Positions 1 to 48,887 of a stretch of DNA of 64,000 nt are shown one piece after another (within the stretch, counting starts at the first letter, position 1; every line of letters starts with the position of its first letter). The translations under genes and the position numbers were made by a program. This DNA comes from Escherichia coli (GTDB lineage: Bacteria > Pseudomonadota > Gammaproteobacteria > Enterobacterales > Enterobacteriaceae): the NCBI RefSeq assembly GCF_030384885.1, contig NZ_CP128613.1, one strand, 5' to 3'. A model generated the notes under the pieces. That model did not search any database. It was given only the letters and a program-made list of their open reading frames with translations, and had not been told where the DNA came from.

Positions 1-1010
1 TCTGCTCCTAATCCTTGCCATGCCTGAAAACGTTTAACGGCTTCTACCAATTCATTATTGTAGGCGGCACGAACGGCAGGCGCAGGTTTACTACGAGACG
101 TCGTTTGCTGGTCCATCGCCTTAGTTTCTGCTGTTTCAGCAGTAACAGCGGATGGGCTGACCACCGCGTCAGTTGGCGTGTCATCGCCAGGCAGAGTTAT
201 TTTCGGCCCCCCGTCCAGCATGCCTGTACGTTGCAATATTTCGCGCAATGCCGGTATGTCGTTACTCCACTGCCCTGGACGCAATGTTGCTTTGCCAGTC
301 AGTTGGGGCCACGGTTTGGTGTCACTGAGTAAGGCCAGTAACGATTCATGCATCGCCGCATATTGCGGATGCTGCGGTGCCAGTCCTGCAACAAACGTCG
401 GCAATTGACCTTTATCCAGCGCCAGCTGCCATTGGTTAATCACCGAAAGCGGCGGCGTTGCAAGCGCATAAGGTTTACTGCTATATAGCCAGCGAGTGCC
501 TTTGACCGGAATATTTGCAATGAAATGGAGATAGCCCATCATCGCATCAGAGAGCACGACGTCGCGTGCCATCCCGTTAACACCAGGATCGGTCAGTAAC
601 TCTACCCATTTATTAAACTGCGGCTGGAAACCGGCAATCGCCACCTCTGCCAGCTGTTGCTGGAAGGCTTTAACAGCATCACGGTTTTCCCACATGGGTT
701 GCATATCGCGTGCGGCATACAACAATTGAAGCTGGTTAAGATAAACCGGCTTATAACCTGCGGGTAATTGAGATTCGATTTGCGTGCGGGCTCTTTCAGC
801 CGCACCTTCAGGCAATGGCTGGATCCCCGCCATTATTGCCGTGGCTTGCGCCTGCGGCAGTGCCTCGCCCTGTTCACTGACAGCCACCGGGCTGTCGCCA
901 GGGATTACTTCAGGCTCATCGGCCTGCGCATTGAACAGTGGAGCGAATGTTACGGCCAGGCACAAACTGATTGCCGACAGCCGACGACCACACATCATAT
1001 TAAGCAACAT
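1..1010 (-). CDS. ldtD: L,D-transpeptidase LdtD (YcbB), N-terminal part only; 3' end lies beyond the window
   Basis: Reverse-complement translation from ATG at 1010 reads [20 protein letters not shown]... (signal-peptide-like) and stays open to the window edge; sits downstream of mukB as in E. coli. Absent from the ORF track because it has no in-window stop. Confidence 0.85.
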
Positions 1011-1246
1011 CCCTTGCCCCCTGTTTTTATCATACTCTGAATAGCCAGGCTGTTATTTTACGACTTGCCTGTACAACGCCAATACTCACGAAAGTATGAC
1101 GAGCAAGCCTGTTACTCATCAGGCTTATCTTCAGTATATAAACGCCGATACGTTTTTACATAACCTAATGTAAAGAAGTTTAAAGAAAAGCGCGCCAGAA
1201 TGTGGCACTTTTTTAGTGCAGAAACGGAGTTTTCAGAAACAGGAAA

Positions 1247-1264
1247 GGCGGCATCGCTGCCGCC
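1247..1264 (-). terminator. Intrinsic terminator downstream of mukB
   Basis: Hairpin ggcggca-tcgc-tgccgcc 7 nt after the mukB stop, followed on the minus strand by a T-rich tract. Confidence 0.6.
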
Positions 1265-1270
1265 TCAATC

Positions 1271-4200
1271 TTAACTCGCCTGGGAAGGCGCTTCGTCAGT
1301 TCCTGGAAGCGTTTCAGGGAGTTGCGGTGCAAAACCACGCAGACCGACTACGTGAACGTGTTCGGTATTCTGGAAGACTTTACGCACCAGTTTATAGGTG
1401 GTGCCTTTTTCCGGGCTGATATTTTCCGGCGCTGCGATGATGAGCTGCATTTGCAAACGCTCACACAATTCAAACAGCGTGGCGATGGAACGGGCGTCCA
1501 GTCGCGCTGCTTCATCGAGGAACAGCAGGCGGCAAGGAGAGATATCTTTACCGCGCAGGCGGCGAGATTCATCTTCCCAGCTTTGTACCACCATCACCAG
1601 AATCGACATACCGGTACCAATCGCCTCACCGGTCGACAGTGCGCCAGACTCCGCGCGCAACCAACCATCGGAACCACGGTTAACCTCAACTTCCATTTCC
1701 AGATAGTTGCGGTAATCCAGCAGTTCTTCACCGATAGTCTGCGGCGTGCGCTGCCCCATATCAATCTGCGGGTTAAGACGTTGATACAGTTTCGCCAGCG
1801 CTTCCGAGAAGGTCAGACGGTTGCTGTTAAACAGATCCTGATGCTGCTCGTGCTGTTCAGAGAGCACATCCAGCAGCATGGCGTGCGTTTCACGTACGTT
1901 CACGTTCAGACGTACGCTGTTCACCTGACCGAACGATACGTTCTGCAAGCCCTGGTTGAGCATACGGATACGATTCTGTTCGCGCTGAATGGTTTTGCGA
2001 ATGATGTTCGCCACGCTGCGGGAACTGATCGCCAGTTTCTGTTCGCGGGACGTTAACTCTTCAGTCAGACGGCTAAGTTCGATCTCCATCTGCTCGATAG
2101 CTTCAACCGGATCATCAGTACGAATAATATCCTGACGAATACGTTCACGCAGATGCTGATAAACCGCCACGAAGAACTGAATTTTACGCTCCGGACGTTT
2201 TGGATCTTCTGACAAACGCAGCACGTCGCGCAGATGTTCATTATCCGCCACCGCCAGACGCAGCGCGCCTAACGCCTTATCCGACATGGAACGCAAATCA
2301 TCAGCGGAGAGATAAGCCAGCTCACGACGGTGTAAGCGGCGCTCAACGCCGTTATCTTTCACCATGCGCATGACTGCACACCAGCCCGCTTTCGCGGTCA
2401 CTACCTGCTCGCGCATCTCAAAGTAATCACGCTCCAGCTTGCGCAGTTTGCGGGTCAGGTTGTCCATCTCCGCTTCGCAGAAGGTAAGCGCTTTTTCCAG
2501 TTGGTTGCGACGTGAACGGTTATTGTTCAGCTGCGCATGTAACTCATCACGGCGAATACGCGCCCGCTCTTCTGCCCCGCTATCAGCACGCACGCCGATA
2601 TCCTGCAATTCACGTTGCAGATCGTTGAGTAGCTCTTTTTTGGTGTCATACGAACTTTTCAGCGAAGCCAGTACCTGATTGTACTGACTTAACTGCGCGG
2701 CGTGTCCGCGCAACGCTTCACGAGCGCGGGTACGCTCCGCTTCCGCCTGTTCCAGACGTTCACGCAGTTTTTCGTTGAGATCGCTGTTACCGCTAAGCAT
2801 TTCTGCCGAGTCAGAGTAGCTAAAGTGCGCACGACGCTGCACCACTTCCGTCAGGGCAAACGCCTGCTGACGGGCATCGCGCTGCATCTGCTGAGAGTAC
2901 GCGTAATCTTCTTTTAGCTGTTCGAACTGTTCCGGGTCACTCTGCAATACCGAAACGATCGGTTCCAGTTTCGCCAGTTGATTACCGAACTGCTGAACAA
3001 AACGCGCGGCTTCCTGGGCTTCATCCAGACGTTCGCGGATTTCATCGACGCGATCCGCCAGGCTGTCATCAGCCAACAAGTTGAGACGCGGCAGAATGCG
3101 GTTCAGCGCCGTAACACCCTCTTTCGCCTGCTCAAACTGAATACGCTGCTGCTGGTTATCATTTTCATGATTACTCAACGCCCGCTCCAGTTCGACGCGA
3201 CGGCTGTTCAGTTGACGGATTTCGGCTTCCGGATCAGACTCAAACGCCACCGCCAGATGGCTGCCGATAAAGCGGCTGAACGCCTGATGCAGACGCTGGG
3301 TTTTCTGTACATCAAAGGAGAGCGTGGCGAAGCGTTCGGAAAGCACTTCACGCTCGGCATGGAGGCTTTCGATACGGCTTTCGCGCGCCGCGCGTCCAAA
3401 CAGCGGCACTTCCGGGAAACGTGAATAACGCCACTGACGATCGGCGATTTTCACCACTACCGCTTTTTCCAGCTCATCAACGCTGAACACGCTGTCATCG
3501 AATGACTGCGGATCCCCTTCGATCAAATAGAGATCTTCCGGGCAATCGGTCAAGCCTTCCAGGTGTTCGGTTACCTGTGACAGATCTGGCACCACGATGG
3601 CGTGGCGTGACGGGCCATACAGCGCTGAGAAGTACGGCGCATCTTCCAGGCTAACGTCGTCATAAATTTCTGACAGCAGCACGCCGCCAAAACGCTCCGC
3701 CAGCGCATTCAAACGCTGGTCTTCAGAACCACCTGGCTGGCTTAAACGTTCGATCTCTTCATCGACGGCGTTTTTGCGCGCGCCTACTTCATCGCGTTCA
3801 ACAATGGCTTCGCGCTCACGCTCCAGCAACTGTTGCAGATATTCGGTGACATCCTGGCTGGAAGAGAACTCTTCGCCGCACTGTTCGCTCAACTGGTTGA
3901 GGCTGTTTTGCGCTGCCAGCCAAACCGGCGCACGCTGCATCAAACTCTGAATGCGAGACTGCAGCTGTTCCTGCTCCTGACGCAGTGCCATGCGCTCTTC
4001 ACGGGCGTTAGAAACACTGTCGGAAAGAGAGGCAATGCGCGCTTCCAGCTCCTGATGCAGGGCTTCCAGCTCGTCGATATCAAAATTCTTGCCCTGACGT
4101 TTGCAGAAATCTGCCAACAGACGCTCAGCTTCTTGCTGCTCGCGCAGACGCTGTTCCAGTTCGCTTAAGCGCATCCGCAACGGCTGAACCTGCTCTGCCA

Positions 4201-44843: not shown

Positions 44844-47800
44844 TTAGTCAAACGGCGGTGGGGCCAGCACTTCACGATTACCGTTGTGCCCCTGTTCGCT
44901 GACAATCCCTTGCGCTTCCATCTGTTCGATAATACGCGCTGCACGGTTATAACCAATGCGGAACTGACGCTGTACGCCTGAAATTGACGCTTTGCGTTTT
45001 TCAATGACAAACTGCACCGCCTGATCGAACAACGGATCCAATTCTTCAGCGCCATCGAAACCACCCGCACCACCTTCGCTTTCGCTGTCGGAGGTGATGC
45101 CGTCAACATACTGTGGGCGACCACGCGCTTTCCAGTCCTGCACCACGGCATGAACTTCCTGATCGCGAACAAAAGCACCATGAACACGTACCGGCAACGT
45201 GGAGTTCGGCCCAGAGTAAAGCATATCCCCCATACCCAGCAGTGATTCCGCGCCAGCCTGATCAAGAATGGTACGTGAGTCAATCTTACTGGATACGGTA
45301 AAGGCGATACGGGTCGGAATATTCGCTTTAATCAGACCAGTAATAACATCAACCGATGGACGCTGAGTTGCCAGTACGAGGTGGATACCCGCGGCACGGG
45401 CTTTTTGCGCCAGACGTGCTATCAGCTCTTCCACTTTTTTACCTACCGTCATCATCAGGTCGGCAAATTCGTCCACCAACACCACAATGTACGGTTCCTT
45501 TTTCAGCACCGGATGCTGCGCATCCATACTGTCACCCGGCTTCCAGTACGGGTCTGGAATCGGACGCATCATGCGATCGGCTTCAGCAATTTTTTCGTTA
45601 TAACCCGCCAGATTACGCACACCCAGTGCAGACATCAGTTTATAACGACGCTCCATCTCGTTAACACACCAGCGCAGCGCGTTGGCGGCATCTTTCATAT
45701 CGGTAACGACTTCCGTTAACAGGTGCGGAATGCCTTCATAAACCGAAAGCTCCAGCATTTTCGGGTCGATCATGATGAAACGCACATCTTCTGGCTGTGC
45801 TTTATAAAGCATGCTCAGGATCATCGCGTTCACACCGACAGACTTACCGGAACCGGTAGTCCCCGCAACCAACAAGTGCGGCATTTTCGCCAGATCGGCA
45901 ACCACCGGCTCACCGGCGATATCTTTACCCAGCACCACGGTTAATGGCGACGGATTATCGCGGAATTTGGCGTTATCCAAAACTTCGCGCAGATAAACGG
46001 TTTGTCGTTTTTTATTCGGTAACTCCAGACCTACATAGGGTTTGCCAGGAATAACTTCAACGACACGCACCGCCACCGTCGAAAGTGAACGGGCAAGGTC
46101 ACGAGACAAGTTAGAAATGCGCGCCGCTTTTACGCCCGGTGCCAGGTTTAATTCAAAGCGAGTGATAACCGGCCCCGGAGAGTAATTGACGACATCGGCT
46201 TTAATACGGAAATCAGCCAGACGCGCTTCCACCAGACGCGCCATTTGTTCAAGCGCAAAGGTATCTACCGGCTCCACTTCGCTCGGCGGCGGTGTCAGCA
46301 AATCCAGAGAAGGCAGCGGCGTCGTCGGTTTATGCAACGGACGGCTGTCGCCATTACGCATCAACAGCGGATGAAGCAGGGTATCCTGCGGCTGCGGCGC
46401 AACCGGTTGTTGTGGCTGCTGATACTGCGGCTGCGGCGCAACTGGCTGTTGCGGCTGCTGATATTGCTGCTGTGGTGCAACCGGCTGTTGCGGCTGCTGA
46501 TATTGCTGCTGCGGTGCAACCGGTTGTTGTGGCTGCTGATATTGCGGCTGCTGATATTGTTGCTGCGGTGCAATCGGTTGTTGCGGCTGCTGTACAGGTT
46601 CAACAATTGGCGTAAACAACGGTTCGTGTGGACCATCATCCAGCAACGCTTTCATTGGCGAAAATTCAAAATCATCCAGCGAGAACGGATTCGCCCCAGC
46701 CGGTTGTTCGCCCGAATAACGTTGCTGTTGAGTTTGAGCAAACTGACGAGCCAGTTCTGCCTCTGCTGCAGCATCTGTATCTTCTGCGTTGACTGGCACA
46801 TCATGTTGATACTGTTCGCCATAGCGTTGCTGCTGCGTCTGGGCGAACTGACGCGCCAGTTCATCCTGCTGCATCGCATCGATTTCATCATCGTTATACT
46901 GATCGCCGGAATCGTACTGATTGCGCTGGGCTTCACGGGCTTTTTCTTCTGCTGCACGCTGTGAGGGCAGCTTAATACCGTAAGACGCCAGTTCACGACG
47001 AGTTGGCACGCGGATGCGTTTCGGTCGTGGCAACTGCGGGCCAATCCCCTCTTTGACCTGCGGACGCGGTCCAGCGCTATTTGCCAGACTGAAAACTGGC
47101 GCGGCAACGGTTGCGGCAGCCCCCGTCGCCAGTGTCGCTTTTTTCACACCAGATGCCAGCGGAGAAACAGCGGCAGCGGCTTCTACTGGAGGTACTGCTG
47201 CAACAGAAGGTGCTTTCAGCGAAGATTTGATCGATTCCGGTTCTTTAACCGGTTCTGGAATCGGTTGATACCAGGCCGCAAGTTGTTCACGTTCACGGGC
47301 TCGCTTCTCTTCCACTTCTTCAAAATAGTAAAGCGGCGGACGCGTGGGTTTTGTCTCTTCTACAACGGGTTCAGGCTCCACAACAGGCTGCTGTTCAACG
47401 GGTTGCGGCTGTTGGTACAACGGCTCCTGAGCGGCTGGCTGCTGATAAGTTTGCTCAGTCTGGTATGTAGACTGTGGAGCAAAAGTGGATTGCTGCTCTT
47501 CGGCTTGCCAGGCGTTACCTGCCATCGATTGTTCTGGCGCAGGGGCGTAATACGGCTGTTGCGCAGACTGTTCCGCCGCAGTTGTGTAATACGGCTGCTG
47601 AACAGGTTGTTCCGCCGCAGGAGCGTAGTAAGGTTGTTGCACAGGTTGTTCCGCCGCAGGCGCATAATACGGCTGCTGTGGCTGTACAGGTTGTTGCAGC
47701 GGCTCATTATATTGCACTGCAGGCTGCGCATATTGTGGCTGCTGAGGGTAACCTTCCGGTGCAGGAGCAATAACCGGCTCTCCCGTTTGTGGCCCCGGTA

Positions 47801-48887
47801 CAGGCTGCCAGGCTACTGTAGGTTGCGCAGGTGGAACATCAACAGAGGCAACTGGCGGCGTCTGAGTCACAGGTTCAACCGGTGCAGCCCAGCTTTGTGT
47901 CGCCGTGGAAGCAGCAGCTGCTACAGCAACAGGTTCGGTAATTGGCGCACCGTTTAATAATGGATCGTATTCGTCATATTCTGGCTGCGTTGCACGATTG
48001 CCCGAAAAGAGGACGTCGTCAGGGTCGGCAGCCACACCGCGTGCAGTGTAGGTAATCTCTTCTTCATCATCCATCCGCTTACCGGAGAACAACGCAGCAT
48101 CTGTTTGCCGCCCCATCGGATTAATAAATTTTTCCGCCAACCGTTTACGACGCGCTAACGCGCCGCGAAGAATACGGGCACGGCGCGATTCATGCTGTTT
48201 GCCGTGATTTTCATCTTCATATTCTTCGTCGTCTTCATACTCATCTTCATCGACCCAGGTATCATCGCGACGGGTACGATTACTGGCGAAGGTGAGAATG
48301 TTTAAAATCCAGCCGCCAAGTTTTTCAGCAATGGTCACCCATGACCAACCGGTAAACAGTGTCAGGCCCGCCGCCCAAACGCAGAGCAGCGCAATAGTTC
48401 CCCCGCTACTGTGTAGCAGTGGTTGTAGCGTAGTGCTTAGTAAGCTGCCGATGACGCCACCGGAGGCAAAATACCAGATATCGTCAGCGTTGATTGCCGC
48501 CAGACCACAAGAGGTAAGGATGAGCGCCAAAACGCCAATGATGCGTAGCGAAACGGCAAAATAATCAATGTATTCGTCACTGGACTGATGACGCCAGGCA
48601 AACCAACAGCCGCCGACGATAATGACGGGAATGGTGTAAGCCATCACGCCAAAAATAAAGAACAGCGTATCTGCCAGCCACGCACCGGGCATCCCACCTA
48701 AATTATGGATAGGTTCATGCCAGGCCGTTTGCGACCAGCTGGGGTCCGAAGGGTTAAAGCTTAGTAAGGCAGCCATCAACCAGACGGCAAACAGGACAAT
48801 AAGGATCAGCAACGCCTCCAGAAGGCGGCGGCCGCTACTTAACTTTGTCAATGTGACTTCTTTGTCTTCAGTGTATTCCTGGCTCAA
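44844..48887 (-). CDS. ftsK: DNA translocase FtsK
   Basis: 1347-aa ORF beginning at TTG 48887 with GGAG upstream; N-terminal TM domain, long Pro/Gln-rich linker with tandem repeats, C-terminal motor with Walker A GTTGSGKS. Confidence 0.95.
46388..46592 (-). repeat. In-frame 39-bp tandem repeats within the ftsK linker (about 5 units, [13 protein letters not shown]-like)
   Basis: Direct reading: a ctgcggYgcaaYcggYtgttgYggctgctgataYtgc unit recurs head to tail. Confidence 0.85.
47540..47700 (-). repeat. Second in-frame 39-bp tandem repeat array in the ftsK linker (about 4 units, [13 protein letters not shown]-like)
   Basis: Direct reading: a gYRtaatacggctgYtg...ggttgttccgccgcag unit repeats four times. 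Confidence 0.85.

Follow-up and report, generated by a model that had tools for sequence, protein, structure and literature searches.

Two in-frame 39-bp repeat arrays in the FtsK linker of an Escherichia coli strain are copy-number-variable VNTR typing loci

FtsK of Escherichia coli comprises a membrane domain, a Pro/Gln-rich linker of ~640 aa and a C-terminal DNA translocase, and in the window (the whole stretch of 64,000 nucleotides of E. coli DNA analysed here) two arrays of 39-bp tandem repeats lie within the linker-encoding part of the gene. This raises the question of what these arrays are, whether their copy number differs among strains and, if so, how the differences arise and what they mean for the protein. 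The product contains the Pfam domains FtsK_4TM, FtsK_alpha, FtsK_SpoIIIE and FtsK_gamma, and the gene is identical to ftsK of E. coli strain 2013C-4282 (NZ_CP027579.1), for which RefSeq gives the same boundaries, the product name "DNA translocase FtsK" and a position between lrp and lolA. In PMC2800217 and PMC5357621, the FtsK linker is described as an unstructured P/Q-rich tether of ~650 aa whose length differs between species and parts of which touch FtsZ, FtsQ, FtsL and FtsI. The initial annotation of the window had given its FtsK as 1347 aa and the K-12 protein as about 1329 aa, 18 aa shorter, and both figures are correct: in K-12 MG1655, ftsK measures 3990 nt, corresponding to 1329 aa (computed here, in agreement with PMC2800217). 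The coordinates of the gene, the arrays, the primer sites used to identify them and the open reading frames on the opposite strand are collected in Table 1.

Table 1. Features of ftsK and its repeat arrays in the window
Feature	Coordinates	Strand	Size	Content or location	Basis or reading
ftsK CDS	44844..48887	minus	4044 nt = 1347 aa	TTG start	ORF and RefSeq CDS WP_074501054.1
Array 1	46386..46592	minus	207 bp, aa 766-834	C-proximal end of linker	TRF and in-frame unit reading
15-bp partial unit	46539..46553	minus	15 bp	QQPQY, after unit 1 of array 1	
Array 2	47523..47678	minus	156 bp, aa 404-455	N-proximal linker	four exact 39-bp units
CVN001 primer site	46687..46707	minus		flanks array 1	0 mismatches
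CVN001 primer site	46294..46315	plus		flanks array 1	0 mismatches
ms07 forward primer site	46833..46852	minus			1 mismatch
ms07 reverse primer site	46290..46309	plus			0 mismatches
ms06 primer site	47769..47788	minus		flanks array 2	0 mismatches
ms06 primer site	47410..47429	plus		flanks array 2	0 mismatches
Antisense ORF	46245..46964	plus	239 aa	Arg/Leu-rich low complexity	shadow ORF, not gene
Antisense ORF	47265..47957	plus	230 aa	Arg/Leu-rich low complexity	shadow ORF, not gene

The presence of two in-frame 39-bp arrays in the Pro/Gln-rich linker had already been noticed in the initial annotation, and was confirmed by TRF and by reading the units in frame. Array 1, which had been placed at 46388..46592 with about five units (right to within 2 nt), consists of five 39-bp units encoding QQPQQP[IV]APQ[QP]QY and one 15-bp partial unit, the last of the five measuring 36 bp as it is without the Tyr codon. 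TRF reports it with period 39 at 46387..46551 (4.2 copies, 90% matches, score 253), and further rows with periods 54 and 15 (the latter at 46527..46566) extend it to 46592. The partial unit accounts for these two additional periods and also takes the window allele off the 39-bp ladder of allele lengths. Array 2, encoding a YY-containing 13-aa peptide, is reported by TRF at 47529..47675/47678 (3.8 copies, 77% matches, score 182); the interval first assigned to it, 47540..47700, referred to the same object and to the correct number of four units, but lay ~20 nt too far towards the gene's 5' end. Both tandem arrays are far beyond chance: identity at a lag of 39 nt peaks at 0.91 within ftsK (best 156-nt window), against a mean of 0.42 and a maximum of 0.50 when the linker was codon-shuffled 500 times.

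Both arrays are already established strain-typing markers, a point that the initial annotation had not recognised. This was determined with the published primer sequences for CVN001, ms07 and ms06 (PMC11773471 and PMC8215070). Array 1 is the VNTR locus CVN001/ms07, known as CVN001 in the generic E. coli MLVA (Lindstedt scheme) and as ms07 in the Shigella/E. coli MLVA panel (ms06, ms07, ms09, ms11, ms21, ms23 and ms32). The primers of both schemes flank the array and have no further sites in the window, where 0 would be expected by chance, and the 39-bp unit, the location inside ftsK and the strain-variable copy number all agree with this locus, which an E. coli MLVA primer table lists as 'CNV001 (ftsK)' (PMC11773471). 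Published alleles comprise 4-8 units for CVN001 (PMC5217547) and 1-12 units, also of 39 bp, for ms07 (PMC8215070). The window allele does not differ from these in kind and is merely off-ladder, with in-silico amplicons of 414 bp for the CVN001 primers and 563 bp for those of ms07, both of which correspond to 5 units + 15 bp; in typing by fragment size, such a product could be mis-binned. Array 2, in turn, is the VNTR locus ms06, for which a 39-bp unit and alleles of 2, 3 and 4 units, giving fragments of 301-379 bp, have been published (PMC8215070). No difference was found between the two: the copy number of array 2 takes the same three states among strains, and the in-silico amplicon of the window, 379 bp, is the 4-unit allele at the top of the published range.

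The proposal that linker length is strain-variable through these arrays was examined by a whole-gene megablast against 5,426 complete E. coli genomes, of which all but one gave a match and 5,315 covered at least 80% of ftsK in one place. Among 58 full-length rows sampled evenly down the ranking, ftsK spans 3987, 3990, 4029, 4044, 4068, 4107, 4110 or 4146 nt, lengths that form a ladder in steps of 39 nt (3990, 4029, 4068, 4107 and 4146) with 3987, 4044 and 4110 in addition; alleles of 3951 and 4224 nt were found outside this sample. Each array was also searched separately, together with its unique flanks, in spread samples of the 5,426 genomes. Array 1 ranges from 4 to 11 units in 58 sampled genomes, 7 units (n=25) and 6 units (n=21) being followed by 8 (n=3), by 5, 9 and 6 units with a 15-bp partial (n=2 each), and by 4 and 11 (n=1 each). 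The same search returned two partial matches, in H119 and H120. Array 2 has 4, 3 or 2 units in 20, 19 and 20 genomes, respectively (record spans of 761, 722 and 683 bp). As initially suspected, repeat counts therefore differ between strains and are not identical. K-12 carries 6 units in array 1 and 2 in array 2, and the 18 aa by which the window protein exceeds that of K-12 are explained exactly by +26 from array 2 (two units more), -13 from array 1 (one unit fewer) and +5 from the partial unit.

All 18 alleles that were typed unit by unit are intact ORFs, encoding proteins of 1316-1407 aa, and the off-ladder changes of 15 bp and 3 bp are likewise in frame; the FtsK linker thus tolerates natural differences of ~90 aa in its length. 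The arrays differ in two respects from a phase-variable contingency locus acting as an on/off switch: their unit amounts to 13 codons and does not shift the frame, and copy number does not switch at a high rate. Within the O157:H7 and K-12 groups it shows no variation among the genomes sampled for array 1, where four of four O157:H7-type genomes have 7 units and all K-12 derivatives have 6; independent assemblies from one and the same lineage carry identical ftsK DNA, and ST131 has been reported as almost monomorphic at CVN001 (PMC3407997, PMC5217547). The variation is slow and occurs at the level of lineages, rather than representing hypermutation.

How the alleles are related becomes apparent from the 18 typed alleles, in which every 39-nt unit was typed at the DNA level, yielding 54 DNA types in array 1; single units can thus be told apart and the events read off from their order. 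In this array, strain Bongo reads 27-31-32-29-33-34-35, and strains 05-3629 and 204446 carry (27-31)x2 and (27-31)x3, respectively, with the remainder as in Bongo, so that the one-, two- and three-fold forms represent successive 78-bp block duplications. A clean loss of a single unit distinguishes strain 81 (7-8-10-11-12) from K-12 (7-8-9-10-11-12), and in O68:H12 97.3 a single unit lacks 3 bp relative to K-12. In array 2, four-unit alleles such as 5-2-10-6 coexist with a common three-unit allele, 5-2-11, whose unit 11 is a chimera of the 5' half of unit 10 and the 3' half of units 6/19 from four-unit alleles. A second three-unit allele, 12-13-9, has a chimeric unit 12 derived from units 1 and 2, and the two-unit alleles are 5-6 and 15-16, unit 16 being a chimera that begins as unit 2. 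Two-unit alleles of array 2 arose at least twice, and the independent origins of two- and three-unit alleles mean that contractions recurred. Chimeric junction units are the products that misaligned pairing of neighbouring units yields. Together with the block duplications, they bear the signature of replication slippage or unequal recombination, acting more than once, which supports the slipped-strand or recombinational expansion and contraction put forward in the initial annotation. In E. coli, repeats as short as these would be expected to rearrange mostly by RecA-independent misalignment. Finally, the closest allele in a complete genome, that of strain N96 (98.2%), has array 2 exactly as in the window and a different array 1 of 7 units, and some of the differences between alleles probably come from lineages exchanging segments of ftsK.

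The two arrays are thus very probably coding minisatellites (VNTRs) in an intrinsically disordered linker of FtsK, an essential protein of division and DNA translocation, in which units are gained and lost in frame by misalignment or unequal exchange. Misalignment of units at replication (slipped-strand or sister-strand) or unequal homologous exchange would add or remove whole 13-residue modules. Since 39 bp equal 13 codons, the frame never shifts and every length variant stays in frame; each variant would then encode a functional protein, and variants would build up as lineage-level polymorphism. The linker, which joins the motor to the membrane-anchored N-terminal domain and contacts divisome proteins, would tolerate about +/-50 residues. 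Length changes would be nearly neutral, and their molecular route would be either RecA-independent slippage or recombination. When a 2-unit ftsK indel was exchanged between strains of Salmonella Enteritidis, none of the phenotypes tested was altered (PMC6137255). The synonymous divergence among units leads to the expectation of a lower slippage rate, which fits the slow, lineage-level variation.

Related loci place the arrays in a wider context. In the Salmonella FtsK proteins inspected, the 13-aa unit of array 1 is present in 6-10 copies directly before a conserved D(S/T)L(I/L)HPLLMRNGD, and STTR7, also termed SENTR2, a 39-bp ftsK VNTR of Salmonella enterica used in MLVA (PMC2430564, PMC8627665), is on comparison at the protein level the orthologue of array 1, although Salmonella generally has more copies than E. 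coli. For Salmonella ftsK, deletions of 84 and 195 bp that preserve the frame are also on record (PMC2430564, PMC8627665, PMC6137255). A counterpart of array 2 was sought in the retrieved Salmonella FtsK sequences and none was found, the corresponding linker stretch being non-repetitive. As Salmonella has array 1 and is without array 2, array 1 predates the split between Escherichia and Salmonella, and array 2 is specific to Escherichia relative to Salmonella. Outside ftsK, coding minisatellites of other envelope and division proteins in the same MLVA panels, such as tolA (CVN004/SENTR1), can be likened to the arrays on the basis of the literature, as cases of in-frame repeats in the low-complexity or extended linker of an essential or near-essential protein that remains functional although its length is polymorphic (PMC11773471 Table 1, PMC2430564 Table 1), although gene, unit length and motif differ.

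Whether the repeats have a function beyond occupying the linker can be approached from the divergence of their units. The 45 distinct full-length DNA units of array 1 encode 10 peptides (pS 0.415, pN 0.034, pN/pS 0.08), the 21 DNA units of array 2 encode 11 (pN/pS 0.14, pS 0.53), and the non-repeated linker between the arrays, compared between the window and K-12, has a pN/pS of ~0.06. By these figures, the copies are old and the repeat peptides are under purifying selection, much like the remaining linker, and because the constraint is no stronger than on the surrounding non-repeated linker, the arrays are not singled out by it. This gives a hint that the sequence of the linker may matter as well as its length, and represents a modest addition to what is known of these loci; the practical value of the findings as a whole is modest.

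Two functional readings of the arrays have been considered. According to the first, which is improbable, the 13-residue, Tyr-containing, Q/P-rich modules would form a multivalent 'sticker-spacer' module for interaction or condensation, of which array 2 would be a younger second instance. This reading draws on the conservation of the motif in both Escherichia and Salmonella and on its purifying selection despite heavy synonymous divergence. If it were true, the copy number (4-11) would tune the clustering of FtsK or its contacts with the divisome beside the motor. According to the second, copy number would act as a knob for adaptive tuning or as a contingency locus, in which linker length or valency would be selected depending on the niche and the arrays would be kept as a source of variation. 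The conserved repeat peptide, the occurrence of the same 13-aa motif at the same position in Salmonella and the intermediate frequencies of the array 2 alleles, about one third each, are in keeping with such a role. However, the variation follows lineage, with no rapid switching (including in PMC3407997), a 39-bp unit makes on/off control by frameshifting impossible, the Salmonella experiment mentioned above, which is the sole allele-swap test, had no phenotype, and the purifying selection on the motif does not exceed that on the linker around it, all of which makes adaptive tuning quite improbable.

Coding minisatellites with lineage-level variation therefore remain the preferred explanation, and it has to be considered whether the window allele is itself genuine. 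At least 99% whole-gene identity to the window ftsK is reached by only one of the 5,426 complete genomes, and the window's own strain is the sole one among them to carry the array 1 allele of five units plus a 15-bp partial. The explanation that the allele is foreign or unusually divergent was rejected: outside the arrays, the gene shares 96.4-98.7% identity with other alleles of E. coli, a divergence only slightly above that among those others, and the low whole-gene identity is largely due to gaps and mismatches inside the arrays. For the neighbouring Lrp, LolA and RarA, the protein alleles are ones common in E. coli.

It is highly unlikely that the copy numbers of the window, including the 15-bp partial unit, are an artefact of assembly collapse or expansion. 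Difficulties of this kind with ftsK are in general evident from the many database entries for FtsK that are labelled 'partial' and whose first or last residues fall in the arrays, such as P0006 (2317 member sequences), which starts right after array 2, and P0050 (2236), which ends inside array 1, as well as by P0048, frameshifted in array 1, and by the ftsK of strain CRE10, described as 'frameshifted'; in draft assemblies, contigs often break and gene calls are often truncated within ftsK. Nevertheless, two independent assemblies, GCA_033972545.1 and GCA_023869285.1, have 0 mismatches to the window ftsK over 4044 nt and reproduce its repeat count base for base, the index of a public assembly collection places the exact 1347-aa protein in 373 blocks, and the identical 15-bp insert is found, at a different position within array 1, in clone D i14, a strain of an unrelated lineage. 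Moreover, at 207 and 156 bp the arrays are short enough, and their units different enough from each other, for ordinary reads to span them. The artefact reading was rejected on the identity of the ftsK DNA in the two other assemblies, and the window allele is genuine. Among the complete genomes, those with a coverage of 60-64% were considered as candidates for IS insertions or rearrangements in ftsK, which was unsupported in the two records checked: TUM14697 has an intact ftsK of 4107 nt, its split match being a BLAST fragmentation across the repeats, and in the CRE10 assembly trxB is 'frameshifted' in addition to ftsK.

The open reading frames on the opposite strand exist exactly as initially given. 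That they are real overlapping antisense genes is scarcely credible and was rejected since, although they are stop-free over 239 and 230 codons, they are aligned with the ftsK codons and stop-free by the scarcity of sense TTA, CTA and TCA, their Arg/Leu-rich translations mirror Gln, Pro and Ala codons, and their length would shift with every VNTR allele. Both are in phase 0 with ftsK, where an antisense stop needs one of these three sense codons, which make up 24 of the 1348 codons of the gene and are absent between codons 311-642 and 642-913. The arrays had been named as the cause of the open frames, which is only partly right: they fill 52 and 69 codons of the stop-free stretches of 331 and 271 codons, which are due to the codon composition of the whole linker and not to the arrays alone.

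The array 1 allele of the window falls off the 39-bp ladder along which ftsK lengths step by whole repeat units among E. coli strains, because this array carries a 15-bp partial unit encoding QQPQY. An identical 15-bp insert is present in strain clone D i14 (NC_017652.1), which is unrelated to the strain of the window, and there it occupies another position in array 1; the form of the array with six units plus 15 bp, as in clone D i14, was found in about 2 of 58 sampled genomes. The two inserts may represent independent events, or they may derive from one event followed by remodelling of the array.

In addition to the 39-bp arrays, ftsK contains shorter in-frame tracts and a further direct repeat within the linker, a 14-aa motif whose two copies lie 105 nt apart and differ synonymously. 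This motif is likewise present twice, in slightly diverged form, in the FtsK of Salmonella, and no variation in its copy number was seen among the inspected alleles.

Minor repeat features of ftsK, with window coordinates
Feature	Position	Strand	Remarks
15-bp partial unit (QQPQY)	46539..46553		Inside TRF period-15 row 46527..46566
6-bp tract, 7 copies	48210..48251		In frame; encodes a 14-residue acidic run
12-bp tract, 2.5 copies	47237..47266		In frame; encodes 10 residues
14-aa motif, one copy	46821..46862 (aa 676-689)	minus	Linker
14-aa motif, other copy	46716..46757 (aa 711-724)	minus	Linker

Many public FtsK protein entries or clusters (P0005, P0006, P0018, P0019, P0020, P0034, P0048 and P0050) are truncated exactly at the arrays, either starting inside or right after array 2, or ending or undergoing a frameshift inside array 1. 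Some of these truncated clusters represent more than 2,000 sequences; draft assemblies and gene predictions are thus commonly interrupted at the repeats of ftsK.

Regarding the spread of the allele, a single one of 5,426 complete E. coli genomes matches the whole ftsK gene (44844..48887) at 99% identity or more, namely that of strain 2013C-4282, from which the window itself comes; the runner-up is strain N96 (98.2%). Draft assemblies, in contrast, often encode the exact FtsK protein, which is indexed in 373 blocks, and the lineage is therefore under-represented among complete genomes. An ftsK match was absent altogether in one of the 5,426 genomes searched, and eight matches lay on plasmid-labelled records. 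Finally, the annotation of strain CRE10 (NZ_CP034404.1) marks both ftsK and trxB as frameshifted, a pattern suggestive of errors in the assembly.
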